64,000 bases of DNA from Nitrosopumilaceae archaeon (GTDB lineage: Archaea > Thermoproteota > Nitrososphaeria > Nitrososphaerales > Nitrosopumilaceae): assembly GCA_965208905.1 (NCBI GenBank), contig OZ242365.1:832001-896000 (forward strand), read 5' to 3'. Positions 6,959-64,000 of this stretch are shown piece by piece (within the stretch, counting starts at the first letter, position 1; each line of letters begins with the position of its first letter). The notes beneath the pieces were generated by a model. The model made no database searches and was not told the origin of the DNA. It saw only the letters and a program-made list of their open reading frames with translations. The position numbers were made by a program, and so were the translations under genes.

Positions 6959-8572
6959 GGTTCCTCCCGCAAGGACGGGTGGTGGTTGATGTGTGTTGGA
7001 TAGTGTTAAATACGTTATTGAACCGTACTATGTAGTGGCATCAGTAAAAAATAGCAGGGCAGTAACACGTCCATACACAAAAAATTTGGGCATGCGACAT
7101 GTGTTTGAACATGTCAGGAAGGTGGCAGAAGTGGCGTACATTATAGCAGATAACACGGGGAAGAATACCTATGGTGTTAATGCATTGATGTATAGTACAA
7201 TGCGCGGTCCTGACCCCAAAGTATATTCGTCCATAACGCAGACCGCCATACGGGACGGGGTTGCCGCCCATAAAACGTACAATACAAAGGCTGCGCAGGG
7301 CACGAAGGTGTCTGAGCCCGTGTTTCGCAATCCGGTTGTAAAGTTAACAAATCAAAGTTGGAGGCTGAATCCGATAGCGGGTGGATATATGGCTATTGCA
7401 AATGTTGGCTCATCAAAACACCCACATATGATAGCAATTCCCGTCTCTTCAGATGTGGTACGTAAAATAGGGCAAAATGAGTTGGGCGAGTTGTGGATCA
7501 CGCCAACCACATATACCATTACATATTACAACAAAGTGCCCAAGGTTGAAAAGTCCCACCCACACGGCAAGTCAGAGATTATCGAACTACTTACGGATGT
7601 GGGCTGTGTGGGCGGTACACCAAGGGATGTAATTGGCATAGACATCAATGAAAAGAACATCACCGTAGGTGATAAAAACACGATGGTACGATTTGATCTA
7701 TCATACACGATACAGGCCATTGAGGAGGCAAAGACTGAGGATACAAACAATACGTATACCCGTACACATGATAATATCGCATATGCGGCACGTACCGGAA
7801 GGCGCGTTGTACACAAGAAAGAGGAGGAGCGCAGAGAAAAGCAACAAGTCACACATGGTGGTCACAAGTTACACAGCAAACTCAAACGCAGATACAATAA
7901 ACTCAAGAGGGAGGGCAAACACAAGAGGGCCGCCGAGATAAAGAAGCAGATGAGCAGATGCATATTGAGCATACCACATAACCACACAAAATCAAGGAAG
8001 AATGCTAAAAAGCGCAGGATGGCCAAAGCCATGCGCCACCACGAACACGTGCTGAATGTAATAGCATTATGTATAGCACAGTGGGCCGCACAATCCGGGT
8101 GCTTGGTGATGTTGGAGGATTTAACCAATATATCGTATGGTTGGCAGAAGAATGGGAAGTTTGGCCATAATATGCGTCGCAGGTTACATTCTGCCATGAT
8201 GCGAAAAGCATCGAATTTAATTTATGAAAAGTCCCGGTTTTTGGGAGTGGAGGCATTACATATGCGCCCACACAACACATCCAAGTTGTGTGCTGCATGC
8301 AGAACCACATTAACTGGAACTTATCATAAAAAAGACTGCATCCGCTGCCATACGGTTGGCGTAGATCGCGACGTCAACGCAGTGGAGAACATACGGCGAA
8401 CAAGCGCCGTATCCCGATATGGTCGTAAGGTTTCGGCCAGTCTGGGCGAAGTCCGTCGTGGTGTGGATGTAATCCTCGATCCCACACCACTCATACAGGG
8501 TTGCTGGAGCAACTGGGCCGACAGACTATCCCGCGTGGCGATGTGACATCACCCGACTTTGCGGGAGGAACC
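6959..8572 (+). mobile_element. TIR-bounded TnpB-only element, family A copy 1
   Basis: 26-bp TIRs GGTTCCTCCCGCAAGGACGGGTGGTG / CATCACCCGACTTTGCGGGAGGAACC (3 mismatches); no TSD visible. Confidence 0.9.
6993..8546 (+). CDS. tnpB: TnpB-like RuvC endonuclease (517 aa)
   Basis: RuvC-I VIGIDIN, RuvC-II VMLEDL, Zn finger CAAC/CIRC, RuvC-III DRDVNA. Confidence 0.88.
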   Translation: MLDSVKYVIEPYYVVASVKNSRAVTRPYTKNLGMRHVFEHVRKVAEVAYIIADNTGKNTYGVNALMYSTMRGPDPKVYSSITQTAIRDGVAAHKTYNTKAAQGTKVSEPVFRNPVVKLTNQSWRLNPIAGGYMAIANVGSSKHPHMIAIPVSSDVVRKIGQNELGELWITPTTYTITYYNKVPKVEKSHPHGKSEIIELLTDVGCVGGTPRDVIGIDINEKNITVGDKNTMVRFDLSYTIQAIEEAKTEDTNNTYTRTHDNIAYAARTGRRVVHKKEEERREKQQVTHGGHKLHSKLKRRYNKLKREGKHKRAAEIKKQMSRCILSIPHNHTKSRKNAKKRRMAKAMRHHEHVLNVIALCIAQWAAQSGCLVMLEDLTNISYGWQKNGKFGHNMRRRLHSAMMRKASNLIYEKSRFLGVEALHMRPHNTSKLCAACRTTLTGTYHKKDCIRCHTVGVDRDVNAVENIRRTSAVSRYGRKVSASLGEVRRGVDVILDPTPLIQGCWSNWADRLSRVAM

Positions 8573-8649
8573 TGCGACATAGCGACTCCTTACCAAAGTA
8601 TGATTCTATGGCAAAGGGCTTAAAGATATGTTTACTTCATAATTGTATA

Positions 8650-9060
8650 ATGGGATTGCTTAGTAGAAAGCCCTCGTATTGTAAGATGTGTGGTGCCAAA
8701 CTAAAACACAAGAACAAACCAAAACGTGAGTGGGGTGTGAAGGGACCTTTATGCGGAGACTGTTACGTAACAAAGACCACAGAGTTCTATGAGGCAAAGA
8801 TAATTCAACCATGTGTAGTTTGCGGTGTACGTCGTCGTGTCGCGGACATGTGGGAGCCGCGCTGGCAATGGGACATGGATGGACTACTATGTAAGGACTG
8901 CTTTGAAAAGAAAGAGACCGGCCATAAAAATGAGAAATCAACGTGTTCACATTGTGGTACCAAGCTGGGGTTTATACGATACAACCCAAAGCCGAAATGG
9001 AATATGAACGGGCAGCTATGCAGAGAGTGCTGGGACAATACAAAGGCAGAACTTGGATGA
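8650..9060 (+). CDS. Multi-Zn-ribbon hypothetical protein
   Basis: Three repeats of CxxC...W...GxLCxxC. Confidence 0.75.
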   Translation: MGLLSRKPSYCKMCGAKLKHKNKPKREWGVKGPLCGDCYVTKTTEFYEAKIIQPCVVCGVRRRVADMWEPRWQWDMDGLLCKDCFEKKETGHKNEKSTCSHCGTKLGFIRYNPKPKWNMNGQLCRECWDNTKAELG

Positions 9061-11046: not shown

Positions 11047-11260
11047 ACAAATCTAGAATTCTGTCTGTATATATACCAATCCATCTTGATTTTTTTGTAA
11101 TTAATGGCTCCTCTCTTAAAGATGTGTGATGAATGAGAGACAGTATTCTGTATAGTCTTGCATTACTAACAATCATACGTGTATAAATAGCGAATATGAC
11201 CTTGATTATTACATATTCTTGCAGAAATAAACTAAAATAATAACGGCGTAGTACAGATAC

Positions 11261-12316
11261 TCTGTTGTACAAAAATTAGGTTCGACTAAGTTCTGGTTGC
11301 AAGCAAAGGAATACTTCACGCTTTATCGATCACGAAAAAAGATGAAAATGACAAAGTTGACGGATAAACAGATACGATACGCCATAAGGGAACGTGGTAA
11401 GGGTAAGACGCTTGTTGACATAGCAGACGATATAGGTGTAACACCACAACATGTAGGACGACTATGTGCAGAGTTTACAAGAACAGGACAGATACACGTG
11501 CAACAAAAGCCAGGCCGGCCAGTCCACCCACCACCGTCGGCAGAGGAGGTCCGAACCGTGTTGAACAAACATGCAGAGGAAGATGTAGGCATCATACGAA
11601 CAGCAAGGAGGGTCAGAAAAGACAATCCGAATATAAGCTATGCCACCATATATCGCATAATGAAAGAACATGGACTAGTCACATCATCTGTAGCAAAATC
11701 CAAAAAAAGAAAATACGTTAGGTATGAGCGCAAATATTCCAATGCCATGTGGCATGTTGACTGGCATATAATGAAGGATCAACGCTTTGCAGGGCTCAAC
11801 CTAGTCACATTTCTAGATGATTCATCAAGGTGTATAACGGGTGCTGCCCTATTCAAGGAAGCCACCTCAGAAAACGTAGTAGATGTGCTGCGACAAGCAA
11901 TAGCGAGATTTGGTACACCGGCCACTATCCTCTCAGATAATGGTAGGTGTTTTAACGGGGGAAGAAGGCATGACGATTCACCTAAGGGCAAATGGAAGCC
12001 TACTGCGTTTGAGGCCGAGTTGTTAGACCGTGGAATCGAGATGATAAACTCACGACCGTATCATCCGCAGACAAACGGCAAACTGGAACGCTTTCACGGT
12101 AGTATAGAGACAGAGATACATCATTATGATAGTCTATCTTCCTATATAGAGTACTATAATGAGCGCAGACTTCACTTTTCGTTGGATATTGACAACTACG
12201 AGACACCACTACAGGCATTTTCTGTCAGAAAGGCCACAAAAGCGATCAGAGAAAAGGACCCAAAATGGATGGAGAGAGATACCGATGATTAACGAACATA
12301 ATTTTCATATAAAACA
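11261..12316 (+). mobile_element. IS481-family insertion sequence, copy 1 (1056 bp)
   Basis: (TC)TGTTGTAC...ATAAAACA imperfect TIRs; 15-bp direct repeat GCGTAGTACAGATAC at 11246-11260 and 12317-12331. Confidence 0.92.
11342..12292 (+). CDS. IS481-family DDE transposase (rve integrase core)
   Basis: N-terminal HTH; WHVD, LDDSSR, SDNG, PQTNGKLERF. Confidence 0.93.
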   Translation: MKMTKLTDKQIRYAIRERGKGKTLVDIADDIGVTPQHVGRLCAEFTRTGQIHVQQKPGRPVHPPPSAEEVRTVLNKHAEEDVGIIRTARRVRKDNPNISYATIYRIMKEHGLVTSSVAKSKKRKYVRYERKYSNAMWHVDWHIMKDQRFAGLNLVTFLDDSSRCITGAALFKEATSENVVDVLRQAIARFGTPATILSDNGRCFNGGRRHDDSPKGKWKPTAFEAELLDRGIEMINSRPYHPQTNGKLERFHGSIETEIHHYDSLSSYIEYYNERRLHFSLDIDNYETPLQAFSVRKATKAIREKDPKWMERDTDD

Positions 12317-12368
12317 GCGTAGTACAGATACATTTAACAATAAATCATAGTAAATTGTTTTGTTTAGT

Positions 12369-17971: not shown

Positions 17972-19333
17972 ATGCAACAGTCTTGTTCTGTAAACAAATA
18001 TTGGGCTTACAACAGATGGCAATCATTGAATAGATGGGAAGAGACATATCGTAAAAATACGCCTACATCCAGAGCGTTATTCGACAAGTCAAGACAGATG
18101 CACATCAATGGAGTCTCTCACAACATACGATACTACGAACCATATCCATTTGTAACTGCACATTCATCTGGGAGATACCTGATAGATGTGGATGCTAACA
18201 AGTATGCTGATTACTGGATGGGTCATTGGTCTCTGATATTGGGGCATGGTTCAGATTACATACTCACAAAGATCAAAGAACAGCTAAACCTTGGCTGGAT
18301 GTATGGTACAGTAAACAGACAGACTCTGGAACTATCTGAGCTAATCTCCAAAGCGATACCCGTCGCCGAGCGTATACGCTATGTAACATCCGGAACAGAA
18401 GCGGTCATGTATGCCACAAGACTTGCTCGAGCATTCACAGGTAGACGCATAATAGCCAAGATTGATGGGGGGTGGCACGGATATGCATCAGATCTCTTAA
18501 AGACGGTAAATTGGCCGTTTACAGAGCCTGAAAGTAGCGGCATTACATCAGACGAATACGTAATCTCAATTCCGTATAATGATATAGAGAAATCTCTAGA
18601 GATACTAACCAGCGTTAAAGAGCAACTGGCCGGAATTATGGTGGAGCCCATTCTTGGTGGAGCTGGGTGCATACCCGCCGAATATGACTACCTGGCAAGC
18701 TTGCAGGAATTTGCCTCAAAGTCTGGAGCACTATTCATGCTTGATGAGATAGTTACAGGGTTCAGATTAAAGTATGGGGGAATGTATGATGATATTGGAT
18801 TATCCCCAGATATCATAACCTTAGGTAAAGTAGTTGGTGGAGGGTTGTCCATTGGAGTCATCTGCGGCAGAAGTGAAGTAATGGATGTTGCCAACACCTC
18901 ACAAATGTCCCGAAAGAGACGTTGCTACATAGGCGGTGGAACATTTTCTGCAAATCCGGTATCCATGGTTGCAGGTGCTGCCACCCTAGAGACATTAAAA
19001 AATAATCCTGCAATATATCAAAAGATAAATCGTCTGGGAGCGCAGACTCGAGATAAAATTGGCAAAATATTAAAAGATAAATTACAGATGACCGGTGCTG
19101 GTTCCCTCTTTATGATGCATTTTCCCAAAGATATCACCAAGCCAATAAAAGATGCAGCCACTGTATTTGAGTGCGATACAAACATGCTGTATAATTATCA
19201 CATGTATCTGATGGCAAAAGAGAATATATTTTTTCTACCGGGCAAACTAGGGGCAGTATCAAATGCTCATGATGAGTCCGATGTTAAAGATATTATTCGG
19301 GCAACCGAAAGGTTTGTTGCCGATGAGCTATAA
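17972..19333 (+). CDS. hemL: Glutamate-1-semialdehyde 2,1-aminomutase (class III aminotransferase)
   Basis: SGTEA, DEIVTGFR, GKVVGGG, GTFSANP; true start may be a little downstream. Confidence 0.8.
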   Translation: MQQSCSVNKYWAYNRWQSLNRWEETYRKNTPTSRALFDKSRQMHINGVSHNIRYYEPYPFVTAHSSGRYLIDVDANKYADYWMGHWSLILGHGSDYILTKIKEQLNLGWMYGTVNRQTLELSELISKAIPVAERIRYVTSGTEAVMYATRLARAFTGRRIIAKIDGGWHGYASDLLKTVNWPFTEPESSGITSDEYVISIPYNDIEKSLEILTSVKEQLAGIMVEPILGGAGCIPAEYDYLASLQEFASKSGALFMLDEIVTGFRLKYGGMYDDIGLSPDIITLGKVVGGGLSIGVICGRSEVMDVANTSQMSRKRRCYIGGGTFSANPVSMVAGAATLETLKNNPAIYQKINRLGAQTRDKIGKILKDKLQMTGAGSLFMMHFPKDITKPIKDAATVFECDTNMLYNYHMYLMAKENIFFLPGKLGAVSNAHDESDVKDIIRATERFVADEL

Positions 19334-19371
19334 AGCGTTAGACTAAAATCGATGTATTATGTTGTAACTGT

Positions 19372-20193
19372 GTGGGCCTATTTGGTAGAGACGAGAATCC
19401 TGAATATTTAATGCGTCAAGCCATGCTATTTATGCAAAAAAATCAACACAAAAAAGCTGTTGGAGAATTTAAAAAAATATTAAAACAGGAACCAAGAAAT
19501 GAAAAAGTTCTATATCAAATTGGGATTGCTCTGAATGGTTTAAAAAAACACAACGACACAATAACATATGCAGATAGAATTCTTGAAATAAATCCTAAAA
19601 ATACTGGCGCCTACAACAATAAAGGAAAAGCCTTTGCAGAGATGGGCAATCTTGAATCGGCCATTAAATGTTATGATGAAGCTATTATTGCAAATTCTAA
19701 GGATTATGAGGCGTATTTTAACAAGGGTGTACTTTTAGCAAAGATTCAAGACTATGACACCGCCTTAGAACTGATTAAAAAAAGCATATCTTTGAATAAA
19801 AAAAACCCTGCTCTGCATCTGCACTCGGGAATAATTTTAGGAAAGATGAAGAAAAATAAAGAGGCATTAAAAGTTCTTGAAAACATTGAACGTAAATTTG
19901 GAGCCCATCCGGATGTTACCTTCCAGCAGGGAATACAGCTGGCAGAGATGGGCGAACACAAAAAAGCAATAAAAATATTTGAAAATATGGGAGAGTCTCA
20001 TGCAGATAATGTAAATATAATATATGCAATATCGCGTAGTCGGGCTGCCATAGGCGAGTACGATGATGCATTACGTCTGTTAAAGAAGGCCGTATCCAAG
20101 AGTCCCAAAGTAATACGGGCATGGGCCAAAGATGAAGACATCTTTAATCCACTACATGCGAATAAAGCCTTTAGACGTCTGGTAAAGATGTAG
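19372..20193 (+). CDS. TPR-repeat protein
   Basis: Repeated AYxNKG-type 34-aa units. Confidence 0.85.
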   Translation: MGLFGRDENPEYLMRQAMLFMQKNQHKKAVGEFKKILKQEPRNEKVLYQIGIALNGLKKHNDTITYADRILEINPKNTGAYNNKGKAFAEMGNLESAIKCYDEAIIANSKDYEAYFNKGVLLAKIQDYDTALELIKKSISLNKKNPALHLHSGIILGKMKKNKEALKVLENIERKFGAHPDVTFQQGIQLAEMGEHKKAIKIFENMGESHADNVNIIYAISRSRAAIGEYDDALRLLKKAVSKSPKVIRAWAKDEDIFNPLHANKAFRRLVKM

Positions 20194-28952: not shown

Positions 28953-29207
28953 TACACATTATGTTAATTTTTATATTTATTTATTCCATAGCACCCGCGG
29001 CTTGACTCAATAACTTGGATTGCAGGCACGGCTAAACAAGGATCAATTTATGTAATATGTGTATGGTGTCGCGCTTTTTTGCCTCAACTTTGTCAGTTGG
29101 TGGATTTGCCATGACTTACTTTTTGACAAGCTAACTGTGGTGGAGATTTTTAACGGGGTGTTGACATGCGTTTAGGTGCTATATGTCTGTCCCACAAGGA
29201 TCCAGGA

Positions 29208-30263: not shown

Positions 30264-30274
30264 CACAAGGATCC

Positions 30275-31710: not shown

Positions 31711-31995
31711 AAGGATCCTAATGTTGCACCAATACTTATCCAGAACACAGTGGCAGAGACGGCAGTCATTGCGCGATATCATTCAATGTTGGGCAAGTAG
31801 GCCGGTGCATCCGGCTACTCTTCTGCATTATGCGGGTCTCCTCATGGAAGCCTAAATGTGTATGCCTGAAAAGTTGATGTTATATCTTTTAATTACTATC
31901 AATCATACGAGTTGTTTTTTTGTGTTTGTTAAAAAGTAGATTGTGCTTCTATGATGATCATGGGGACTATGTGGGTCAGTCGATATCTATACATT

Positions 31996-32565: not shown

Positions 32566-32609
32566 TAACTCTGTAGGTTATCTGGAAAATACGGCTGATG
32601 GTAGTTTTA

Positions 32610-39864: not shown

Positions 39865-39955
39865 AAACCAATCAACTCCTGAATTATCATGTATGAATAA
39901 TCTGGATTGCATTATAATAGTCTAACGAAATTGAAAAATGGGAAAAATTTGAAAA

Positions 39956-40306: not shown

Positions 40307-40347
40307 TGTATGGTACTTTGTTAATTTTTGTTATAATAACTTTGTGG

Positions 40348-40512
40348 AGTTAGGTTCTTGCAAGGACAGGTGATTTGGCCATGCCCAAACGTAGGGCATT
40401 CTGCGGCGTACCATCCCATCAATATCCCTCCTACGATACATGTTGGATGTGGCGGGTGTCTGGCGGTATCACACTTCGTCTCGGGCCGTCACCCCGTCTT
40501 GCGGGAGTAACC
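40348..40512. mobile_element. Degenerate ~165-bp MITE of TIR-TnpB family A
   Basis: TTGCAAGGACAGGTGAT left and GTCACCCCGTCTTGCGGGAGTAACC right; flanks ACTTTGTGG / CATTTGTGG. Confidence 0.6.
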
Positions 40513-40691
40513 CATTTGTGGGGGCTAAATGGTTACCATGCCCCCTGCTAATTTTAGGCGCTCGATATAGGTTGTTGCTACATATTGCTAATTAACACCG
40601 TTTTGCGCCGTTAGTAAGGCTGCAATGCCCGTATCACATCAAAATCGGACCTAGAACGGGGGCGGGGTTGAGCATGTACGCCCTTCAGATG

Positions 40692-42309: not shown

Positions 42310-42351
42310 TTCAGATGTAAGCTATTTAGTAGTGTGCATATTGTCTGAATC

Positions 42352-44184: not shown

Positions 44185-44620
44185 TTTTTGGGTTTGCCTT
44201 TAAATACGTGATGAACTTTCGTAACTGAAATACAGTCTCCGGGTTCAAATGGTGTTCTATACCCTCGGCATCCTGATTTGCGGCATCACCAGTTATGCCC
44301 AACATATCAAAGAACTCCAACAGAGTACCATGCCTCTGTCGTATGGAGTCGGCCAACTTGCGTCCTTTGTTAGTCAAGTTTATGCCATGGTACTTTTCAT
44401 ACTTTAGAAAGCCGCCCTCATCCAATCGATGTAGCATCTTGGTGACACTAGGCGCACTTACATTCATGTATCTGGATATGTCCAAAGTGGTGGCATATCC
44501 TTTTAGTTCTACAAGCTCTGCCATCACCTCTAGATAGTCTTCCATACGGGGACTTGAATCTCGACGGCCCACGCCATGTGCAGCACGAATGGAATCTAAT
44601 CTGCTAACATCCGGCGGCAT
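44159..44620 (-). CDS. DtxR/MntR-family metal-dependent repressor
   Basis: MEDYLE, VSAPSVTKML, AEGIEHH. Confidence 0.9.
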   Translation of the reverse strand: MPPDVSRLDSIRAAHGVGRRDSSPRMEDYLEVMAELVELKGYATTLDISRYMNVSAPSVTKMLHRLDEGGFLKYEKYHGINLTNKGRKLADSIRQRHGTLLEFFDMLGITGDAANQDAEGIEHHLNPETVFQLRKFITYLKANPKIIEEFGRL

Positions 44621-44710
44621 AATACTAATACGTCTACACCATATTAAAGAGCTCCATTTGTTATACCTGCACAGGATACGATTTTTAATGGCATTGCACA
44701 ACGTGTAGTA

Positions 44711-45202
44711 ATGGCCACCCGAATGCAAGTACTAATACCCGTGGCTGCCGCCGCCGTAATAGTTGGTGTGGTTGGCATAATATCCATACCAGCAGATACC
44801 AAGATGGACTTTGCTGAATTTCCACAAGGTACCATACGGGTAGATGATGTTGTAGTTCAGGTGCAGATAGCTGATACAGAGCCACGCCGCGTACTAGGCC
44901 TAATGCATCAAAACGAACTCCCATATGATCAGGGAATGATATTCATATTTGACTCTGTAGGGCAATACAGTCTGTGGATGCGTAACGTACAGTTTCCCTT
45001 GGATATGATATGGTTTGATGAAGATGGTGTTGTGGTCCACATCGAAGAACGTGTACCTCCATGTCTTACCGCCTTGGAAGCCATGACCTGCCCGTCCATT
45101 GCCCCGGAAGTTGATGCGCTATACATACTTGAGGCCACCGGTGGTTTTGTCGAGCTGCACAATATACAGTTGGGCTCGCAGCTATACCTGATATCAGTAT
45201 AA
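44711..45202 (+). CDS. DUF192 protein
   Basis: GLM, GMIFIF, WMRNVQFPLDMIW, YILE. Confidence 0.87.
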   Translation: MATRMQVLIPVAAAAVIVGVVGIISIPADTKMDFAEFPQGTIRVDDVVVQVQIADTEPRRVLGLMHQNELPYDQGMIFIFDSVGQYSLWMRNVQFPLDMIWFDEDGVVVHIEERVPPCLTALEAMTCPSIAPEVDALYILEATGGFVELHNIQLGSQLYLISV

Positions 45203-45422
45203 CTAATGGAAATTACATCTCTAAGTAAACATGACCACTCTTTCGAGTGATGTTGGCGCCGGGTGCTGTCCGTGAGGGACAATTCCCACGCCATCCAAGG
45301 GGGCTCTGATGAGACGTTCTTTGTTGGTCAGGTTTTGACGCCCGACCTTTGGACAACTTGTGCCGGCCATCACATCACCAACGGCACTGGATATAGTGAG
45401 TGTCACGAGATGTCTGCAACAC

Positions 45423-47145
45423 GGGTATGTCCCACTAGTATAAAGCCACTGGAGTCTCCTCCGGCAGCGCTACACCAGCAGCACAATTGGATACATCCAG
45501 GTGGTCGTCCAGGGACGGTAAATCATCACCCACGCGTAGTGAGTTCATCACCTCCCCTTTAGGCCGCCGCCCTTCACCGTCCTGCGGAAACCACAAGACG
45601 GTAGCATCCAACAACCGTTGGACGCACTGCTCCCAATCCCCGGCCACCCACCGATTAGAATCGGCTGCCGGTTCACAGTATTTGAGGATGCCGCGCCATA
45701 CAATATTGATGGCTGCGACATCATCCCTGTCGATATGGTATAAACAAATCTCACACCCTTTAATACGCCTCCATTCCTCCCATATTTTCGTGTCGTACTT
45801 TGGTTCCCACAACGCTTTCTTACAGGTAGGGCAAGTAGAACTAGTACCCTTAGCAACGACACCAATCACGGGAAGACCATGCTTTCCGTATACGCTTTTA
45901 GCCACCGCCCATATCGTACCCTGACTCCGCCCCATCTTCAACAAGTCGCGCGTCTCGTTTGACATCTGTTTGTTACTCTTTTTCATCATCCTGTCGATGG
46001 TTGGCTCCTCCAACACCAACACAAAGCCCAACGCGGCCAACCTGTACATCAGCTTGAACAGCCAGTCCTTCTTTTGGTTGTTGTATCTGGTGTTTATGCG
46101 GGCGCGTTCGCGACGACTAACTCTCTCATCTCGCCGCTTGTTCTTTGGCTTGCGGCCTGCATGTTTGATGTGCTTTGGCAGAGTACGCCTCCCTTTCTTT
46201 GGTTTTTGGGCTTGTTTACTCTTCGGTTTGCCACCAGTCATGCCTAGGTTGGCGTGTTTCTGCCGTCGTGTCTAAGCGGCTTCAAGCGCCCATTTGGAAT
46301 GCGTTTTACATTACCGTCGGTGTCAACCGTTACATGCTGTACTTTGTTGACATCCATACCCATCATACCTTTGGCCTGCACTGGTGTGGTTGGTTGTGGT
46401 TCATACGCGATGGATACCGTTTTGTCATTTATGGTAACCGCCCCCACACTTACGGCAGTAGCCAACTTTTCTACCATGTACGGCGTGAGTTGTATCTCCA
46501 CGGTGTGTTTATGTGGTGTGATGGGAAACCGCAACACCACGTATGGTGATACCTGTAGGGGTTGATTCGGTGCGTCAGATAACCTACATCGGAAACCTTG
46601 ACCATATATCCGACAAGACCCAGCATTCTGCCGCAGTACTGGACTTGTACACTTTGGCCGCCGCGCGTTGGGGTCTTGCGCACGCCTCTTGTAGTATGCA
46701 CGCATCTTAGCCTCACACTCATCTTTCATGGTTAACGCGAACTGCGCCATGTATTTGTTGTCGCGGTGCTTGAGCAGTCTGTATATGTTCTTGGCTCTGA
46801 CATCATACTCTTCTAACTCATCTTCACTATACGCTTCCCGTACTTTTGGAAAATCCCTGATCAATTCGGACCAAAGACGGTATCCCAGCCCAGTCTTATG
46901 TCCTGCATATTGTAAGGCGGATTCCAGTATATCATCTGGGTCGTATTTGGGCGGTCTACGAGATCCTGTCAGTTCACAAAACTTTGCAGGATGGTATATC
47001 TTACCGTGTGGCATTGCTACTGCTACGGTGTCACCACATCGTCTTTTCATAGAGTACTATACTATGTTTTACTATTTAATATTTGATTACCGTTATTGGC
47101 ATACACCATTCACTGTTTTTGGATATTTACCTGCGGGACACACCC
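45423..47145 (-). mobile_element. TIR-bounded TnpB-only element, family C
   Basis: 13-bp TIRs GGGTATGTCCCAC / GCGGGACACACCC; perfect 9-bp TSD CTGCAACAC at 45414-45422 and 47146-47154. Confidence 0.88.
45435..47050 (-). pseudogene. tnpB: Frameshifted TnpB-like RuvC gene (two ORFs)
   Basis: MGMDVN (RuvC-I) in 46244-47050; LVLEE, CPTC/CEIC, DRDDVAAINI in 45435-46241; frameshift near 46270-46290. Confidence 0.8.
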
Positions 47146-47188
47146 CTGCAACACCAAAGAATTTATTTTGATTTCATAATTAGAAAAC

Positions 47189-47836
47189 ATGAGACGCAGT
47201 ATACTGATTACAATAATTATTTTGATTGGTGTGAGCATGTCTGCTCTTGTTTTGATATATAATTTGGGCCAACAACCTGAAATTGAAATACAAGCATCAG
47301 AGTCGTATATCTGCGCGGATGATTTGACTGAGAGTGAACTATCTGTAACACCCTTATCGTATGATGATAACAACTTGATTCGGTCTGCGCTCGAAAGACA
47401 CGATATACAGATGTCCTCATCACTAGAGTTTTCTGGCGAAAAGGCTGCAGAATTTTGCTCGTTCTTTGCAGATGGCACTGTACCCGTATACTGCACATCT
47501 ACCGAACTCGTACAGAGTGGTGAATTTTTGGGCAACGTCCACATGGTGGGTACGACTGATGAGCCCTCTGCTGTGTTGGGGGTTGTACGATCTGACACCA
47601 TACCTTCTGGTGTACATACCGTGACTGCTGTAGCTGATTCGATTATTGGAAGTGTATTTGAGTGCACAGGTGGCACATCCGCCCTCTGGATAGAGCAGTT
47701 ATCGGATAGACATACAAGAGAGAGTACTATGGCCACAAAGTCCACTATCGATGGTCTACCAACACCGGTCTTGTTGGAGCTGACCGGCTCATCTGGCAAC
47801 TATTTATGGACAATTTTGATTGGTAACACTCCATGA
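47189..47836 (+). CDS. Membrane-anchored hypothetical protein
   Basis: N-terminal TM helix; YCTSTEL...FLGNVHMVG. Confidence 0.7.
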   Translation: MRRSILITIIILIGVSMSALVLIYNLGQQPEIEIQASESYICADDLTESELSVTPLSYDDNNLIRSALERHDIQMSSSLEFSGEKAAEFCSFFADGTVPVYCTSTELVQSGEFLGNVHMVGTTDEPSAVLGVVRSDTIPSGVHTVTAVADSIIGSVFECTGGTSALWIEQLSDRHTRESTMATKSTIDGLPTPVLLELTGSSGNYLWTILIGNTP

Positions 47837-48678
47837 TACAGTGGATTATCATATTACTCGTTATTGGATTGCTGATTTTAGCCGCACTCTTTGGTGGTTC
47901 AGCACTGGTACCCGACGTGCAGACTGCCGTATTCTTTGTGTTCCTGGCAACTGCAGCTAGTACATTGGCATCTATAGCGGGTCTGGGAGGCGGCCTTGTC
48001 ATAATACCCATACTGATATTTCTGGGACTATCGCCTCCGGTTGCCGCCTTTGGCAGTCTTGCCGCCACAATGTCCAACGCAACCGCCTCAAGTCTGATAT
48101 ATGGACGACAAAGACGCATAGAGTACAAGGAAGCTCTGAAACTGGGCATGATAGCCATACCTGGCAGTATATTGGGCGCCATACTATCAAAGGATGCCGA
48201 GGTTGGCTCTTACAGCATACTTTTAGCTACTATTCTAATATCTGCAGGTGTCTATGTGTATATCCGTCCCCGTCTGCGCAACCGTCCACATCCGGGAACC
48301 CCCATCTTTTTGACACTCTCTGCAGGTACCAGCTTCCTTGCAGGTTTGGTCTCTTCGTACTTTGGAATAGGTGGAGGTGTGGTCTTTATTCCATTATTGG
48401 TGATGCTATACGGCATGAGCGTAATGCGTGCAGCCCCCACATCCATAATGGCACTTTTGTTGACCTCCATAGCTGGGATAACTACTCATGGTGTATTGGG
48501 TAATACCGATGCTATACTGGCGTTACTGTTATCTGCAGGAGGATTGTTGGGCGGCATGACCGGAGCCAAACTCTCACTGGAGGTAGGTGAAAAGTACGCC
48601 CGAGTGTTGGTGATGGCGACCATGACTGTCACGGCCATCATGATGATATGGAATAGTGCTGCCCCTGATACTGCCTAA
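47833..48678 (+). CDS. TauE/SafE sulfite-exporter family protein
   Basis: GLGGG and GIGGG repeats; many TM helices. Confidence 0.87.
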   Translation: MIQWIIILLVIGLLILAALFGGSALVPDVQTAVFFVFLATAASTLASIAGLGGGLVIIPILIFLGLSPPVAAFGSLAATMSNATASSLIYGRQRRIEYKEALKLGMIAIPGSILGAILSKDAEVGSYSILLATILISAGVYVYIRPRLRNRPHPGTPIFLTLSAGTSFLAGLVSSYFGIGGGVVFIPLLVMLYGMSVMRAAPTSIMALLLTSIAGITTHGVLGNTDAILALLLSAGGLLGGMTGAKLSLEVGEKYARVLVMATMTVTAIMMIWNSAAPDTA

Positions 48679-59610: not shown

Positions 59611-59630
59611 TTTATTCTTTACCTCATGTT

Positions 59631-61246
59631 GGTTCCTCCCGCAAAGTCAGGTGACGGTTGATGTGTGTTGGATAGTGTTAAATACGTTATTGAACCGTAC
59701 TATATGATGGCTCTAGTCAAAAATAGCAGGGCAGTAACACGTCCATACACAAAAAATTTGGGCATGCGACATGTGTTTGAACATGTCAGGAAGGTGGCAG
59801 AAGTGGCGTACATTATAGCAGATAACACGGGGAAGAATACCTATGGTGTTAACGCATTAATATATCATATAATGCGCGGCCCTGACCCCAAAGTATATTC
59901 GTCCATAACGCAGACCGCCATACGGGACGGGGTTGCCGCCCATAAAACGTACAATACAAAGGCTGCGCAGGGCACGAAGGTGTCTGAACCTATATTTCGT
60001 AATCCGGTTGTAAAGTTGAAAAACCAAGATTGGAGGCTGAATCCGATAGCGGGTGGATATATGGCTATTGCAAATGTTGGCTCATCAAAACACCCACATA
60101 TGATAGCAATTCCCGTCTCTTCAGATGTGGTACGTAAAATAGGGCAAAATGAGTTGGGAGAGTTGTGGATCACGCCAACCACATATACCATTACATATTA
60201 CAACAAAGTGCCCAAGGTTGAAAAATCCCACCCACACGGCAAGTCAGAGATTATCGAACTACTTACGGATGTGGGCTGTGTGGGCGGTACACCAAAGGAT
60301 GTAATTGGCGTGGATATTAATGAAAAGAACATCACCGTAGGTGATAAAGATACAATGGTACAGTTTGATCTATCATACACGATACAGGCCATTGAGGGGG
60401 CAAAGACTGAGGATGTAAACAATACGTATACCCGTACACATGATAATATCGCATATGCGGCACGTACCGGAAGGTGTGTTGTACACAAGAAAGAGGAGGA
60501 GCGCAGAGAAAAGCAACAAGTCACACATGGTGGTCACAAGTTACACAGCAAACTCAAACGCAGATACAATAAACTCAAGAGGGAGGGCAAACACAAGAGG
60601 GCCGCCGAGATAAAGAAGCAGATGAGCAGATGCATATTGAGCATACCACATAACCACACAAAATCAAGGAAGAATGCTAAAAAGCGCAGGGTGGCCAAAG
60701 CCATGCGCCACCACGAACATGTGCTGAATGTGATAGCGTTATGTATAGCACAGTGGGCCGCACAATCCGGGTGCTTGGTGATGTTGGAGGATTTAACCCA
60801 TATATCGTATGGTTGGCAGAAGAATGGGAAGTTTGGCCATAATATGCGTCGCAGGTTACATTCTGCCATGATGCGAAAAGCATCGAATTTAATTTATGAA
60901 AAGTCCCAATTTTTGGGAGTAGAGGCATTACATATGCGTCCACACAACACATCCAAGCTATGTGCTGCATGTAGAACCCCACTAACTGGAGCTTATCATA
61001 AAAAAGACTGCACCCGCTGCCATACGGTTGGCGTAGATCGCGACGTCAACGCAGTGGAGAACATACGGCGAACAAGCGCCGTATCCCGATATGGTCGTAA
61101 GGTTTCGGCCAGTCTGGGCGAAGTCCGTCGTGGTGTGGATGTAATCCTCGATCCCACACCACTCATACAGGGTTGCTGGAGCAACTGGGCTGACAGGCTA
61201 TCCCGCATGGCGGGGGGTGTAATCACCCGACTTTGCGGGAGGAACC
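59631..61246 (+). mobile_element. TIR-bounded TnpB-only element, family A copy 3
   Basis: GGTTCCTCCCGCAAAGTCAGGTGA...TCACCCGACTTTGCGGGAGGAACC; TSD CCTCATGTT (59622-59630) / CCTCGTGTT (61247-61255). Confidence 0.92.
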
Positions 61247-61356
61247 CCTCGTGTTTTGGGAAATTAAAAATGATCCAGGTCTGGTATGGTGATCGTTTTG
61301 AGTGCGTGGCACGCTTGTGTGGTTTGGCTGCAAAAAATCCCACACCCTATGATTAA
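59665..61356 (+). CDS. tnpB: TnpB-like RuvC endonuclease; stop lost, reads through right TIR
   Basis: Close paralog of copies 1 and 2; catalytic motifs intact. Confidence 0.86.
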   Translation: MLDSVKYVIEPYYMMALVKNSRAVTRPYTKNLGMRHVFEHVRKVAEVAYIIADNTGKNTYGVNALIYHIMRGPDPKVYSSITQTAIRDGVAAHKTYNTKAAQGTKVSEPIFRNPVVKLKNQDWRLNPIAGGYMAIANVGSSKHPHMIAIPVSSDVVRKIGQNELGELWITPTTYTITYYNKVPKVEKSHPHGKSEIIELLTDVGCVGGTPKDVIGVDINEKNITVGDKDTMVQFDLSYTIQAIEGAKTEDVNNTYTRTHDNIAYAARTGRCVVHKKEEERREKQQVTHGGHKLHSKLKRRYNKLKREGKHKRAAEIKKQMSRCILSIPHNHTKSRKNAKKRRVAKAMRHHEHVLNVIALCIAQWAAQSGCLVMLEDLTHISYGWQKNGKFGHNMRRRLHSAMMRKASNLIYEKSQFLGVEALHMRPHNTSKLCAACRTPLTGAYHKKDCTRCHTVGVDRDVNAVENIRRTSAVSRYGRKVSASLGEVRRGVDVILDPTPLIQGCWSNWADRLSRMAGGVITRLCGRNPSCFGKLKMIQVWYGDRFECVARLCGLAAKNPTPYD

Positions 61357-61384
61357 TAAAAGAGGCCAATTCCATACGATACAA

Positions 61385-61498
61385 GCCGGCCATAGCGTCA
61401 GGGCGCGACCCAACCCCATTCCGAACTTGGAAGTCAAACCTGATGTCGCTGTTGTGCTACTAAGGTGCGAGAGCTCTTGGGAAGCAACAGTGCTGGCA
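61385..61498 (+). rRNA. rrf: 5S rRNA (stand-alone)
   Basis: GCCGGCCATAGC...CCCATTCCGAAC...GAAGTCAAAC...GCGAGAGC...GCTGGC. Confidence 0.93.
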
Positions 61499-61530
61499 TT
61501 ATTTATTAATAGTTACTGTGCATGATTATT

Positions 61531-61666: not shown

Positions 61667-62611
61667 TTAAACCGGGAAAGCTCCGCACATTCTGCAGAAC
61701 CTTGACTCTGTAACCGTGCATTTACAATATGGACAGTTATGGGAGCCATGTTCACCAGCTGGAGGGACTCCAAATTTTTGTTTGTACTGCTCGTAATAGA
61801 ACAAAGACTCTTTGGTGCGAATTTTGATGCCATCCTCCTTTAATATGTCGGATGTTTTTGTGTCAAACTGTACGTCTGAGATGAGCGATTCTAGTAGATT
61901 TGTCAACCCTGCAGTTCCGGCCCCATCCTGCATAGGAGTCTTTTCTCGCCACAATATGCCTGGAGGCAACAAATTCCGGAACGTCTGACGCAGTACCATC
62001 TTGCCCATGACACGTCCCTGATGATTCCCTATCATATCTTTGGGCGCAATACGTGATGCAGCATCCATTACGGCGTGGTCTAAAAAGGGCGATTCAACCT
62101 GTACACCCATGAATTTACCAATTTTGTGTGATGTAAAGTGCATTATGTTTCGAAGCCGACGAAGCTCATCACCAAGATTCTCTGTCCTTATCAAAAAATT
62201 ATACCCGGCAAAGATCTCATCTGCTCCATCACCAGTAATTATACTATCAATATTGCACTGTTTGGCCTCTCTAATGGCAAAGTACATGACTAAACTGTTG
62301 CGAATCTCTATATCGTTAAAGTTACCCAATATATTGATGGTTTGCCCAGCCCCTTCTAACATCTCTGCTAGAGTGGGTGTTATCATCTTCAATGACATAT
62401 TCAAATTCTTTGATACCATTTGAACATACGTCAAATCTGTCGATACAAACTCTTCGGCAATTACCGATATGGCCTGCATCTGCCTCTCTTGTGTTAGATA
62501 TGCAATTATGGTACTGTCTAATCCGCCCGACAAAGATATTGTGTTGGCCTTTGTGTCTATGCAGGCCTGCCGTATGATGTTATACAAATCTTCCATACAA
62601 TTTAGATTCAC
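61667..62611 (-). CDS. Asparagine-synthase-related protein
   Basis: LSGGLDS, TGDGADEIFAGY, C-terminal Zn ribbon. Confidence 0.85.
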   Translation of the reverse strand: MNLNCMEDLYNIIRQACIDTKANTISLSGGLDSTIIAYLTQERQMQAISVIAEEFVSTDLTYVQMVSKNLNMSLKMITPTLAEMLEGAGQTINILGNFNDIEIRNSLVMYFAIREAKQCNIDSIITGDGADEIFAGYNFLIRTENLGDELRRLRNIMHFTSHKIGKFMGVQVESPFLDHAVMDAASRIAPKDMIGNHQGRVMGKMVLRQTFRNLLPPGILWREKTPMQDGAGTAGLTNLLESLISDVQFDTKTSDILKEDGIKIRTKESLFYYEQYKQKFGVPPAGEHGSHNCPYCKCTVTESRFCRMCGAFPV

Positions 62612-62635
62612 AAAATCTTAACAAATATGTATTTA

Positions 62636-64000
62636 GGCTCCTCCCGCAAAGTCGGGCGATGGTTGATGTATTGTTGGATAGTGTTAAATACATTATTAAA
62701 CCGTACTATGTGATGGCTCTTGTAAAAAATAGCAGGGCAATAACACGTACATACACAAAAAATTTGGGTATGCGGTATGTGTTTGAGCATGTCAGGAAGG
62801 TGGCAGAAGTGGCGTACATTATAGCGAATAATACGGGGAAGAATACCTATGGTGTTAACGCATTAATGTATCGTACAATGCGCGGTCTTGACCCCAAAGT
62901 ACGTTCATCCATAACGCAGACCGCCATACGGGACGGGGTTGCCGCCCATAAAACGTACAATACAAAGACTGCGCAGGGCATGAAGGTATCTGAACCTGTA
63001 TTCTGTAATCCGGTTGTAAAGTTAACAAATCAAAGTTGGAGGCTGAATCCGATAGCGGGTGGATATATGGCTGTTGCAAATGTTGGCTCATCAAAACACC
63101 GACACATGATAGCAATTCCCATCTCTTTAGATGTGGTACGCAGAATAGGACAAAATGAGTTGGGCGAGTTGTGGATCACGCCAACCACCTATACAATTAC
63201 ATATTACAACAAAGTACCAACGGTTGAAAAACCCCACCCACACGGCAAGTCGGAGATTATTGAACTACTTACGGATGTGGGGCAGGTGGGCGGCACGCCA
63301 AAGGATGTGATTGGTGTTGATATTAATGAAAAGAACATCACCGTAGGTGATAAAAACACGATGGTACGGTTTGATCTATCATGTACAATACAGGCCATTG
63401 AGGAGGCAAAGACCGCGGATGTAAACAATACGTATACACGCACACATGATGATGCCGCATATGCAGCACGTACCGGAAGGCGTGTTGTACACAAGAAGGA
63501 GGAGGAGCGCAGGGGAAAACAACAAGTCACACATGGTGGTCCCAAACTATACAACAAACTCAGACGCAGATACAAGAAACTCAAGAGGGAGGGCAAACAC
63601 AAGAGGGCCGCGGAGATAAAGAAGCAGACGAACAGATGTATACTGAGCATACCACATAACCACACAAAGTCAAAAAAGAATGATAAAAAACGCAGGGTGG
63701 CCAAAGCCGTGCGCCGCCACGAACACGTGCTGAATGTAATAGCATTATGTATAGCACAGTGGGCCGCACAATCCGGGTGCTTGGTGATGTTGGAGGATTT
63801 AACCAATATATCGTACAGTTGGCAGAAGAATGGGAAGTTTGGCCATAATATGCGTCGCAGATTATATTCTGCCATGATGCGGAAAGCATCGAATTTAATT
63901 TATGAAAAGTCCCGGTTTTTGGGAGTGGAGGCATTACATATGCGTCCACACAATACATCCAAGTTGTGTGCTGCATGTAGAAACATACTAACTGGGACTT
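62636..64000 (+). mobile_element. TIR-bounded TnpB-only element, family A copy 4 (runs off window)
   Basis: Left TIR GGCTCCTCCCGCAAAGTCGGGCGATG. Confidence 0.88.
62659..64000 (+). CDS. tnpB: TnpB-like RuvC endonuclease (3'-partial)
   Basis: MVDVLLDSVKY... open to window end; VIGVDIN, VMLEDL, CAAC present. Confidence 0.86.
   Translation, partial: MVDVLLDSVKYIIKPYYVMALVKNSRAITRTYTKNLGMRYVFEHVRKVAEVAYIIANNTGKNTYGVNALMYRTMRGLDPKVRSSITQTAIRDGVAAHKTYNTKTAQGMKVSEPVFCNPVVKLTNQSWRLNPIAGGYMAVANVGSSKHRHMIAIPISLDVVRRIGQNELGELWITPTTYTITYYNKVPTVEKPHPHGKSEIIELLTDVGQVGGTPKDVIGVDINEKNITVGDKNTMVRFDLSCTIQAIEEAKTADVNNTYTRTHDDAAYAARTGRRVVHKKEEERRGKQQVTHGGPKLYNKLRRRYKKLKREGKHKRAAEIKKQTNRCILSIPHNHTKSKKNDKKRRVAKAVRRHEHVLNVIALCIAQWAAQSGCLVMLEDLTNISYSWQKNGKFGHNMRRRLYSAMMRKASNLIYEKSRFLGVEALHMRPHNTSKLCAACRNILTGT

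Follow-up and report, generated by a model that had tools for sequence, protein, structure and literature searches.

The window analysed here is a 64,000-nt stretch of contig OZ242365.1 (positions 832,001 to 896,000) from a sponge-associated archaeon of the family Nitrosopumilaceae. It contains seven elements bounded by terminal inverted repeats (TIRs), all found at the coordinates given in the original prediction and each with a tnpB-like gene as the sole gene between the TIRs (Table 1). The 21-nt TIR of family A occurs seven times in the window compared to zero occurrences expected from 100 shuffles, and all seven genes match the TnpB TNB domain or TnpB models. Target site duplications (TSDs) of 8-9 bp, which had been claimed for these elements, are present in five of the six complete ones, but element A1 lacks a TSD. 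The tnpB ORFs span the elements, starting ~35-60 bp past the left TIR and ending, stop codon included, 5-26 bp before the right end. The proteins of B1 and B2, previously regarded as a single type, belong to two different TnpB subfamilies. Where one IS481 transposase had been noted, the window carries two IS481-like copies, with rve transposases of L007/L001 type; as had been observed, their ends are unrelated to those of the tnpB elements, and these copies were rejected as candidate mobilizers.

Table 1. Coordinates of the tnpB elements and insertion sequences in the window, and IS6-like elements with A-type TIRs in sister genomes
Feature	Coordinates	Strand	Details
Element A1	6959-8572	+	1614 bp; TIRs 6959-6979 and 8552-8572; tnpB ORF 6993-8546, 517 aa; no TSD
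IS481-like DDE insertion sequence, copy 1	~11255-12319	+	Ends unrelated to tnpB-element TIRs
IS481-like DDE insertion sequence, copy 2	~29207-30272	+	Abuts B1
Element B1 with TSD	30267-31718	+	Element proper 30275-31710; 8-bp TSD AAGGATCC on each side; left TIR degenerate, AGGACTTATCC (9/11 match); tnpB frameshifted, ORFs 30454-30975 and 30944-31696; L005-type subfamily
Element B2 with TSD	32602-34043	+	Element proper 32610-34035; TSD TAGTTTTA; TIR GGGAATTA(C/T)ATACAAAAGTACA; tnpB 32675-34030, 451 aa, stop codon 5 bp short of the element end
Element A2 with TSD	40684-42317	-	Element proper 40692-42309, 1618 bp; perfect TSD TTCAGATG; tnpB 40718-42286, minus strand
Element C with TSD	45414-47154	-	Element proper 45423-47145, 1723 bp; 9-bp TSD CTGCAACAC; TIRs GGGTATGTCCCAC and GGGTGTGTCCCGC; tnpB 45435-47050, minus strand, one in-frame stop at ~46242-46244
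Element A3 with duplication	59622-61255	+	Element proper 59631-61246; 9-bp duplication CCTCATGTT/CCTCGTGTT; tnpB ORF 59665-61356, running past the right end of the element
Element A4	62628-64000 (runs off the window)	+	Left TIR 62636; right end in the genome at window-equivalent 64248; TSD TGTATTTA
IS6-like elements with A-type TIRs, G009 and G004			L030-33, L287, L291, L294, L297, L303

Judging from their sequences, the TnpB proteins look catalytically intact. Residues D229, E387 and D472 do not vary among 13 sequences sharing 32-91% identity, a range across which the RuvC D-E-D triad and the zinc finger are both conserved, and the alignment of family B to the TnpB of ISFba1 likewise retains the three acidic positions (D, E, D). 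The predicted model of the family A protein matches structures of Cas12f, TnpB and Fanzor2 over ~500 columns (E 1e-15 to 1e-8), with Cas12f and TnpB as the best matches and Fanzor2 at rank 13, suggesting a TnpB/Cas12f-like fold; the structure comparison revealed the TnpB/Cas12f architecture only, with no extra transposase domain. Many tnpB copies are pseudogenes with stops or frameshifts. In the second genome copy of family C, tnpB is intact (537 aa).

The genome searched, a single contig of 2.2 Mb that is 99.6% complete, contains ~75 tnpB loci (75 TNB-domain matches), compared to no matches to Y1_Tnp or Resolvase (serine recombinase) in the genome-wide domain search. Perfect 8-bp TSDs flank 10 of the 16 family A TIR pairs and 15 of the 23 family B-type pairs, and 9-bp TSDs are found for two of the three family C pairs, the third of which (3589 bp) looks like a chance pairing. 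The proposed one-to-one pairing of TIR families and protein types does not hold across the genome: the A-type TIR encloses two TnpB clades, TnpB-A (~528 aa) and TnpB-A2 (409 aa), as well as a DDE transposase gene, and IS1595 transposases share the GGGAATTAT-type TIR with four or more subfamilies of TnpB. There are also MITE-like derivatives with TSDs (496 and 585 bp in family A, 372 and 115 bp in family B), which are internal deletions keeping tnpB fragments. The full-length tnpB/TIR architecture recurs in dozens of copies, sister genomes included. Some other TnpB families of this genome (L004, L010 and L016) have hairpin-like ends. A precise empty site for window element A2 was found in DNA run X14 from a related strain, where a 9875-nt contig joins window position 40681 directly to 42308. 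The 1626 bp skipped are the sum of the element (1618 bp) and a single TSD copy (8 bp), so that the whole TIR-tnpB unit and one TSD copy are missing in X14.

The search of the genome and its relatives for copies of the TIRs enclosing DDE transposases identified IS1595 elements in the host genome, IS6-like elements in sister genomes and an IS5-like remnant in G009, rather than members of IS256/Mutator, ISL3 or ISH6, the families guessed originally. Family B has its first 13 bases (GGGAATTATATAC) and the 8-bp TSD in common with four intact IS1595-family transposase elements of the same genome, which have GGGAATTATA... TIRs (13/13 leading bases in G000:C1:1770047-1772736). The intact IS1595 elements also hold passengers, namely, a methylase-HNH gene. 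Family A-type TIRs enclose intact IS6-like DDE elements of 1.45-1.48 kb in the sister genomes G009 and G004, with GGTTCCTCC(C/T)GCAA... TIRs and 8-bp TSDs. The host genome carries a decayed, frameshifted IS6-like copy (926302-927837), the two TIRs of which match (21/21) both TIR variants of the tnpB elements. Given that the family A cognate transposase in the host genome is a pseudogene, with ORFs of at most 154 aa, and that no TIRs were found for ~12 paralogues (30-34% identity) of the IS6-like transposase in this genome, family A may be immobile at present. A composite made up of a family A2 tnpB element, 8 bp and the decayed IS6-like DDE copy has the 8-bp repeat TTAAACTC on both outer sides. 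The link of family C to IS5-like elements is a single degraded, TSD-less element, L041 in G009, in which C-type TIRs surround collinear DDE_Tnp_1/IS5 remnants. The TIRs of A and A2 are thus assigned to IS6-like elements, those of B and its relatives to the IS1595 family and those of C, probably, to IS5-like elements. The identical TIRs and the same TSD length on DDE elements argue for mobilization of the tnpB elements in trans by DDE transposases, one of the two mechanisms originally put forward, and not for the other, self-mobilization, which the original prediction itself regarded as refuted by a cognate DDE transposase.

With the elements oriented by tnpB, we scored the bases immediately preceding the left TSD copy. 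WTA is found at this position in 14 of 14 family A elements scored in the host genome (11/11 with a TSD and 3/3 without; MITEs were oriented by their tnpB fragments), including A1, where ATA precedes the 8 nt adjoining the left end. TTR is present in six of the seven family A2 elements, and TTA in 5/5 A-like and 3/3 A2-like elements of G005; the WTA and TTR motifs are not clearly different. Altogether, 28 of 29 A/A2-type elements have the motif on the side upstream of tnpB, and the left flanks of both families are AT-rich and TATA-like. In family B, G occupies position -1 in 11/11 elements (ATGG|T in B2) but in only one of three copies without a TSD; the same base is found in 2/2 elements of the L017 subfamily and 3/4 B-like elements of G006. 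TTT(A/G) precedes four of six family C elements, and the three elements of the L005 subfamily have no common flank motif. The DDE-only relatives do not show the fixed motif orientation of the tnpB elements: on the side nearer the transposase, position -1 is G in one of nine IS1595 relatives without tnpB, and T-K-K occurs on either side of IS6-like elements without tnpB (two left ends, four right ends). However, (A/T)TATAAnnnT(G/T)(G/T) adjoins the TSD on one side in four of five IS6-like DDE-only elements of G009, and hence part of the putative TAM may reflect a target preference of the transposase itself or a promoter context. A search for an omega-RNA with Rfam returned 5S rRNA only, and the consensus fold of the right ends is weak (-6 kcal/mol, covariation term 0). 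The RNA-library contigs (assembled, not reads) over B-type 3' regions have 18-20 mismatches, indicating that they come from other copies.

We consider it likely, with a probability of about 0.7, that the elements are non-autonomous DDE-type transposons (mobile insertion cassettes) carrying as their only cargo a tnpB that serves as a homing-type nuclease. The cognate transposases would act in trans, cutting and joining the TIR ends and generating duplications of 8 bp (A, B) or 9 bp (C). The TnpBs would function as in IS200/IS605 elements, with an omega-RNA that ends at the right TIR, a guide corresponding to the right flank (TSD and downstream bases) and, as the TAM, the short oriented motif that abuts the left TSD copy on its 5' side; for a guide beginning at the right flank, this is the place where a TAM is expected. 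Such a nuclease would cut only empty or precisely excised sites, in which TAM, TSD and right flank are combined, and the cuts would force recombination that copies the element (homing or retention). Transposition of the IS6 family is replicative, which lessens the need for post-excision homing.

A different reading, possible but in our view rather doubtful, is that TnpB is carried as a passenger only, or else has a regulatory or domesticated role, with the motif representing either the DDE target preference or a captured host TATA-box promoter driving tnpB, and that there is no guide-RNA homing. The one-sided TATAA-type motif of the G009 elements, the TATA-like left flanks of A and A2, the outcome of the Rfam search and right-end folding, and the many disrupted tnpB copies are all compatible with it. 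However, the motif occurs at either end of DDE-only elements as opposed to the nearly invariable tnpB-upstream side in A/A2-type elements, and tnpB elements with IS1595-type or IS5-like-type ends repeat this one-sided arrangement, which IS1595 DDE elements generally do not display. Moreover, conservation of the D-E-D triad and zinc finger, and ORFs terminating close to the right end, as in omega-RNA-bearing elements, speak against a mere passenger.

Far less probable is self-mobilization, in which the RNase H-fold TnpB would recognize the TIRs, cut the target with an 8-9 bp stagger and carry out cut-and-paste or copy-in transposition, even though tnpB is the sole gene in every element, neither TnpA nor serine recombinase was detected in the genome and the host copy of the cognate DDE gene of family A has decayed. 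Cognate, bona fide DDE transposase elements with identical TIRs do exist; one TIR type serves two TnpB clades of unrelated length, whereas related TnpBs in G005 (33-36% and ~80% identity) use different TIR variants; TSD length (8 versus 9 bp) tracks the TIR/DDE family, not the TnpB clade; tnpB-less MITE derivatives also have TSDs; and the family A model shows no added transposase domain. We give the least credence to coincidental nesting of canonical IS200/IS605-type tnpB units, with hairpin ends of their own, inside independent MITEs. Although both short, MITE-like derivatives sharing these TIRs and some TnpB families with hairpin-like ends occur in this genome, the former are internal deletions, the tnpB ORFs fill the elements, leaving no room for separate IS605 ends, the architecture is too recurrent within and between genomes, and the X14 empty site is devoid of the whole unit.

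The Fanzor1 and Fanzor2* elements of eukaryotes and giant viruses were reportedly described by Bao and Jurka in 2013. As treated by Yoon et al. (2023; PMC10711439), they too are non-autonomous TIR/TSD transposons that are mobilized by an unrelated transposase and encode nothing but a TnpB-family nuclease, and their guide RNA is expected to extend outwards through the TIR. In contrast to Fanzors, the present elements reside in an archaeal host and their proteins are TnpB-like in sequence; furthermore, their TSDs vary in sequence and so cannot belong to a fixed RNA scaffold, unlike the proposal for Fanzor1 (PMC10711439). By analogy, the archaeal elements may be viewed as a prokaryotic parallel to the eukaryotic ones, albeit one known before in outline, and the original portrayal of TIR/TSD carriage as essentially a eukaryotic trait overstated the novelty. 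The available text of Altae-Tran et al. (2023, PNAS; PMC10691335) describes six DDE-associated TnpB branches (DDE-1 to DDE-6) with inverted terminal repeats, as well as solo TnpBs whose ends are those of transposase-bearing copies, a pattern interpreted there as mobilization in trans; our elements are, therefore, a variation on a known theme rather than wholly new. Shared features are a prokaryotic tnpB within symmetrical inverted terminal repeats and a tnpB 3' end near a transposon end. The differences are the IS1595-family, IS6-like and possibly IS5-like ends, partners unnamed in the available part of that text (the DDE partners named in the available part of a review, PMC13565253, are ISL2, IS630 and IS1031), the non-autonomy of all tnpB copies, with no element having both genes, the high copy number and the TAM-like motif abutting the TSD. 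The IS1341 group (tnpB-only IS200/IS605 elements) similarly has a lone tnpB in multiple copies with the transposase encoded elsewhere, but IS200/IS605 elements have subterminal hairpins and Y1 TnpA, and neither TIRs nor TSDs (PMC13565253), unlike the elements and the genome studied here.

Apparently, then, the tnpB elements borrow the ends, and hence the transposases, of ordinary DDE insertion sequences. In the mobile insertion cassettes, or transporter IS, of the IS1595 family, familiar from the ISfinder reviews of Siguier and Chandler, passenger genes lie between IS1595-type ends flanked by an 8-bp duplication; the end consensus of the ISNwi1 group of this family is ggnnatTAT. The same type of ends and duplication surrounds a passenger here, but this passenger replaces the transposase altogether and is a presumed RNA-guided nuclease. 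As such, the tnpB passenger may promote the persistence of its own element.

All seven elements in the window are bounded by terminal inverted repeats (TIRs) and contain a single tnpB-like gene, identified with Pfam PF07282 and the NCBIfam TnpB models. The original prediction of TnpB-only elements with TIRs plus duplications of the target site (TSDs) is thus confirmed from their ends and gene content, with the exception of A1, which has no TSD. The 21-nt family A TIR occurs seven times in the window, against zero occurrences expected from shuffled sequences. Element A2 of the window belongs to family A and should be distinguished from family A2, a second TnpB clade of the same genome.

TnpB-carrying elements of the window
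Element	Position in the window	Family	TSD	Remarks
A1	6959-8572	A	absent	
A2	40692-42309	A	TTCAGATG	
A3	59631-61246	A	duplication CCTCATGTT/CCTCGTGTT	
A4	62636 onward; right end at window-equivalent 64248	A	TGTATTTA	
B1	30275-31710	B	AAGGATCC	left TIR degenerate; gene frameshifted
B2	32610-34035	B	TAGTTTTA	
C	45423-47145	C	9-bp, CTGCAACAC	one in-frame stop

The same pattern extends across the genome, a single contig of 2,214,775 bp in which the window is G000:C1:832001-896000. Genome-wide pairing of TIRs yielded 16 family A pairs, 10 of them with perfect 8-bp TSDs, 23 pairs of the GGGAATTAT type (15 with perfect TSDs) and three C-type pairs, two of which have perfect 9-bp TSDs and the third of which is chance-like; TSDs also flank short derivatives of 115-585 bp. 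The TIR type of family A is shared by family A2, which comprises nine copies of a 1516-bp element encoding a 409-aa TnpB; the 8-bp TSD is perfect in four of the eight complete copies, and two further copies show it with a single mismatch. Similarly, the GGGAATTATATA terminus is shared by at least four subfamilies of TnpB elements (L018, L005, L017 and L014). Altogether, the TnpB TNB domain has 75 matches in this genome, and there are further TnpB families with about 20 copies of 436-447 aa (e.g., L004, L010 and L016 at G000:C1 376991-378323, 402424-403865 and 250662-252078, respectively). L010 has a TIR of roughly 40 bp, (A/G)GGAACTGTCC(C/T)ATCTACAGCGCGTGTCCC, with hairpin-like ends (CTGCCGTACGGCAG). 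Neither the Y1 TnpA (PF01797) nor the serine recombinase (PF00239) has a single match in the 99.6% complete genome; the control searches were positive in 6 of 14 reference genomes for the former and in reference genomes for the latter. The presence of TIRs and TSDs, together with the absence of a Y1 HUH TnpA and of a serine-recombinase TnpA from the genome, places the elements outside IS200/IS605 (including the IS1341 group) and IS607, respectively.

The encoded proteins carry the split RuvC-like D-E-D nuclease and the zinc-ribbon TNB domain of TnpB. PF07282 scores above the cut-off in six of the seven window genes, the seventh being truncated by the window end; the full-length NCBIfam TnpB model is above cut-off for B2 only (134 vs 100), and families A and C score far below it. 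The family A proteins (~528 aa) contain the GVDIN, LEDL and DRDVN motifs and a C4 zinc finger, with D229, E387 and D472 invariant across 13 sequences that share 32-91% identity. The alignment of family B with ISFba1 TnpB (8iaz; E 2e-11) keeps the catalytic D, E and D positions. In family C, the GMDVN, LEE and DRD motifs are collinear. The WED/REC/RuvC/TNB fold of TnpB was recovered for family A, the sole family modelled: in Foldseek, the AlphaFold model (mean pLDDT 68, pTM 0.50) matches AsCas12f, ISDra2 TnpB, ISFba1 TnpB and Fanzor2 over 480-510 columns with E-values of 1e-15 to 1e-8, at TM-scores of only 0.25-0.37, and no extra transposase-like domain is present in it. Family A is rare, with 17 representatives at E <=1e-30 and 129 at E <=0.001 among 1.84 billion searched, and most of the 129 are ordinary TnpBs of 370-430 aa matching in the RuvC half only. 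The only named relative is encoded on a Cenarchaeum MAG contig, and a related-locus search across genome contigs returned a single fragment. Membership in Fanzor, the TnpB homologues of eukaryotes and their viruses, is not applicable to this host, which encodes TBP, TFIIB and MCM; the architecture is analogous.

In all three families, the tnpB stop codon lies 5-26 bp before the right end, an arrangement known from elements in which the guide RNA terminates at the boundary of the transposon. The Rfam search detected no omega-RNA, its only match being a 5S rRNA gene (74.8 bits; window 61382-61501) located between A3 and A4, 136 bp downstream of A3. The consensus fold of the right ends is weak, with no convincing structure, and the RNA-library contigs (public runs X1 and X2) over the 3' parts of B-type tnpB genes derive from other copies and are uninformative on the ends, strand and level of the RNA. 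In A3, the stop of the tnpB ORF has been lost, and the frame continues across the right TIR to 61356.

The ends of family B are those of IS1595. The 2690-bp element L012 (G000:C1:1770047-1772736; TSD CAATTTTA) has GGGAATTATATACTTAAAATCA at both termini, the first 13 bases being identical to the family B TIR, and codes for a DDE transposase of the IS1595 family (PF12762, E 3e-40; NCBIfam NF033547, about 176-177 bits against a cut-off of 75). Three other intact IS1595 elements of the same genome have GGGAATTATA TIRs and 8-bp TSDs, so that the ends and TSD length of family B are common to four elements with an IS1595 transposase (PF12762/NF033547). For IS1595/ISNwi1, the typical TSD is 8 bp and the end consensus is ggnnatTAT. 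Given that tnpB is the sole ORF of family B elements, which have no IS1595 transposase of their own, the family represents a non-autonomous derivative rather than a strict member of IS1595. Some IS1595 elements carry passengers, namely, a fusion of an N6/N4 DNA methylase with an HNH nuclease in L012 and a 467-aa ORF in the intact element G000:C1:1043578-1046414.

For families A and A2, matching ends were found on IS6-like elements. Two sister genomes, G009 and G004, contain elements of 1.45-1.48 kb bounded by GGTTCCTCC(C/T)GCAA(A/G)G(A/T)CGGG, with perfect 8-bp TSDs, which encode a transposase of ~395 aa whose N-terminus is of SWIM-like and zinc-ribbon type. This transposase is above the cut-off for PF13610 (32-56 bits vs 27), and its best NCBIfam model is IS6, yet below cut-off (58-101 vs 125). 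Nine IS6-like elements have 8-bp TSDs, the length typical of IS6. In the genome under study, there is a decayed IS6-like copy (926302-927837; tblastn match in three frames, ORFs of <=154 aa), the left and right TIRs of which are identical, at 21 of 21 positions, to the two TIR variants of the tnpB elements. This copy is part of a composite (G000:C1:924780-927837; L037 and L098) consisting of an A2-type tnpB element, 8 bp (AGCGTTGA) and the frameshifted IS6-like DDE element. The 8-bp direct repeat TTAAACTC on either side of the complete composite suggests a single transposition event that made use of one end of the tnpB element and one end of the DDE element, as if the composite had moved as a unit from its outer TIRs. 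The composite is at window-equivalent about 92780-95837, outside the window.

Several other candidates for the family A cognate were rejected: a 409-aa ORF (L024) beside a solo TIR at 1052986 is unrelated to the IS6-like transposase; a solo TIR at 1578195 near an IS5-like remnant has no detectable partner; and no TIR and TSD were detected for about 12 IS6-like paralogues of the L008 type in the same genome. These paralogues (e.g., L008 at 18759-20038, 1369492-1370747 and 2095843-2097111) are 30-34% identical to the A-type cognate, contain a SWIM-like CxC...CKH motif and are ~70-76% alike in DNA. Of 20 solo A-type TIRs retrieved from G009, 10 were examined, and a partner was found for one (a 169-bp MITE, L086) and none for the other nine. 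In metagenome scans, the 33-nt left-end pattern had no matches, and the 14-nt core matched 120 loci, which were set aside as chance matches because none contains the 21-nt TIR. The A-like (L053, L058, L064, L068 and L072) and A2-like (L261, L264 and L267) TnpBs of sister genome G005 are associated with other GGTTC... TIR variants, GGTTCTCTCGAAAATACGG and GGTTCTCGGACAAACTC, indicating that ends and cargo are reshuffled within the genus.

C-type TIRs are found in seven of nine sister genomes, mostly on tnpB-only elements with 9-bp TSDs or on ones that also hold a nested IS3-like or IS630 insertion. Pairs of 3.0-3.3 kb and 1.48 kb, considered as possible autonomous forms, proved to be of the latter kind. 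The sole candidate is a 1315-bp element of G009 (L041) with C-type TIRs and no TSD, in which two same-frame ORFs match successive parts of DDE_Tnp_1 (PF01609 positions 5-111, E 7e-4, and 153-196, E 3e-3; NCBIfam IS5_2, 1e-5), all below cut-offs; tblastx of L041 against the genome under study and all loci gave no match. A TSD of 9 bp is typical of IS5/IS903.

The search for a DDE transposase enclosed by the same TIRs in the genome and its relatives thus recovered IS1595 for family B, IS6-like elements for family A and a degraded IS5-like candidate for family C. Of the two explanations initially put forward, the pairing of TnpB clades with DDE-type ends mobilised in trans is supported, as the same ends are present on DDE elements, whereas mobilisation by TnpB itself is not, given that the cognate DDE elements share these ends.

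Comparison of public sequencing runs with window positions 30000-48000 provided an empty site. DNA run X14 represents a related strain that differs by ~1% in the flanks; one contig of 9875 nt covers 33961-40681 and resumes at 42308-45457, and the joint omits 1626 bp, that is, the 1618-bp element and one 8-bp copy of the TSD. Accordingly, the duplication of A2 either arose with the insertion or was lost again through precise excision, and did not pre-exist. At window position 32398, within the host gene that separates B1 from B2, one X14 contig also has an 18-nt insertion, a difference between strains that has no relation to the elements.

When elements were oriented by the tnpB strand, a short motif was found immediately 5' of the left-hand TSD, in the position where the motif that TnpB needs beside its target (TAM) would be expected for a guide starting at the right flank.

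Motifs immediately 5' of the left-hand TSD, by element group
Group	Motif	Occurrence	Remarks
Family A, same genome, with TSD	(T/A)TA	11/11	orientation of two MITEs set separately
Family A, same genome, without TSD	(T/A)TA	3/3	
Family A2, same genome	TT(G/A)	6/7	
G005 A-like	TTA	5/5	33-36% identity; TIR interior different
G005 A2-like	TTA	3/3	another TIR variant
Family B (L018)	G at -1	11/11	T at TSD position 1 in 10/11
L017 subfamily	G at -1	2/2	
G006 (sister genome) B-like	G at -1	3/4	56% identity
Family C	TTT(A/G)	4/6	

In the same orientation, the bases following the right TSD copy show no conservation. The three elements of the L005 subfamily have no motif in common, and only one of the three family B copies without TSD has G at -1. 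An apparent tracking of the TnpB clade by the difference between the A and A2 motifs was dropped, because the A2-like elements of G005 show TTA, as does family A. Elements without tnpB served as controls. G at -1 was found on the transposase-proximal side in one of nine IS1595 elements of sister genomes, and on varying sides in the four IS1595 elements of the genome under study. Among the IS6-like copies of G009, four of five have a one-sided (A/T)TATAAnnnT(G/T)(G/T) adjoining the TSD, twice at the left end and twice at the right (two versus four when L032 and L033 are included). Given that these DDE-only elements share a one-sided motif, the A/A2 motif may in part represent a target preference of the transposase itself or a promoter context; the feature peculiar to the tnpB elements is the motif's fixed orientation. 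Four IS6-like elements of G009 (L287, L291, L294 and L297) have a TATAA-like box on one side and lie 4-6 bp downstream of it, in either orientation, which may reflect a target preference for promoter-like DNA.

We infer the guide-RNA, cleavage and transposition steps of the following mechanism. A DDE transposase supplied in trans would insert the cassette, producing the 8- or 9-bp duplication. An omega-RNA ending at the right TIR would have the TSD and right flank as its guide. At an empty or precisely excised site, the sequence matching this guide would directly follow the motif 5' of the left-hand TSD, which corresponds to the TAM position. At an occupied site, the match would be limited to the 8-9 bases of the TSD, as the left TIR comes next. 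Cutting by TnpB would therefore be confined to empty alleles, into which the cassette would then be copied, and the orientation bias would result from retention or drive of those insertions that chance to place the TAM correctly. A homing role of this kind has been shown for IS200/IS605 TnpB (PMC10705468). It appears unlikely that TnpB takes a more active part in where DDE-made insertions land or survive, either as TAM-bound TnpB, with or without RNA, recruiting or orienting the DDE transpososome, or through homing as a gene drive needed for fixation of the cassette. With recruitment, insertion would take place precisely at TAM+0, and tnpB would face away from the TAM; if true, this would constitute a primitive precursor of CRISPR-associated transposition that needs no guide. 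In either version, these elements would serve as a living model of TnpB leaving IS200/IS605 to become a Fanzor-type partner of DDE transposons.

The principle of DDE-associated TnpB is already in print. Altae-Tran et al. (2023; PMC10691335) describe six TnpB branches with DDE transposases, all with inverted terminal repeats and IS630 among those named, as well as solo TnpBs whose ends match those of copies bearing a transposase; a 2026 review (PMC13565253) names ISL2, IS630 and IS1031 as partners and discusses the rarity of the DDE and OMEGA pairing in prokaryotes; and Fanzor elements with TIRs and TSDs are described by Yoon et al. (2023; PMC10711439). Neither IS1595- or IS6-type tnpB cassettes nor a TAM abutting the TSD were found described in the literature searched, which leaves aside the supplements of PMC10691335, where such partners may be listed. 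What is added to the published cases is the combination of an oriented TAM-like motif, autonomous and non-autonomous partners and an empty site.

The same review raises the question of why the pairing of TnpB with DDE transposons is rare in prokaryotes yet common in eukaryotes in the form of Fanzor (PMC13565253). The elements described here offer a compact natural system for addressing it, with three DDE end types in one lineage, several TnpB clades and many copies, along with matching autonomous elements and an empty site in a related strain. The proteins are candidate compact nucleases of 409-530 aa, for which the flanking sequences point to putative simple T-rich or NG TAMs. The geometry of TAM, TSD, element and TSD-derived guide predicts a nuclease that would cut only precisely empty sites, and the cooperation of an RNA-guided nuclease with a TSD-making transposase thereby becomes directly testable.
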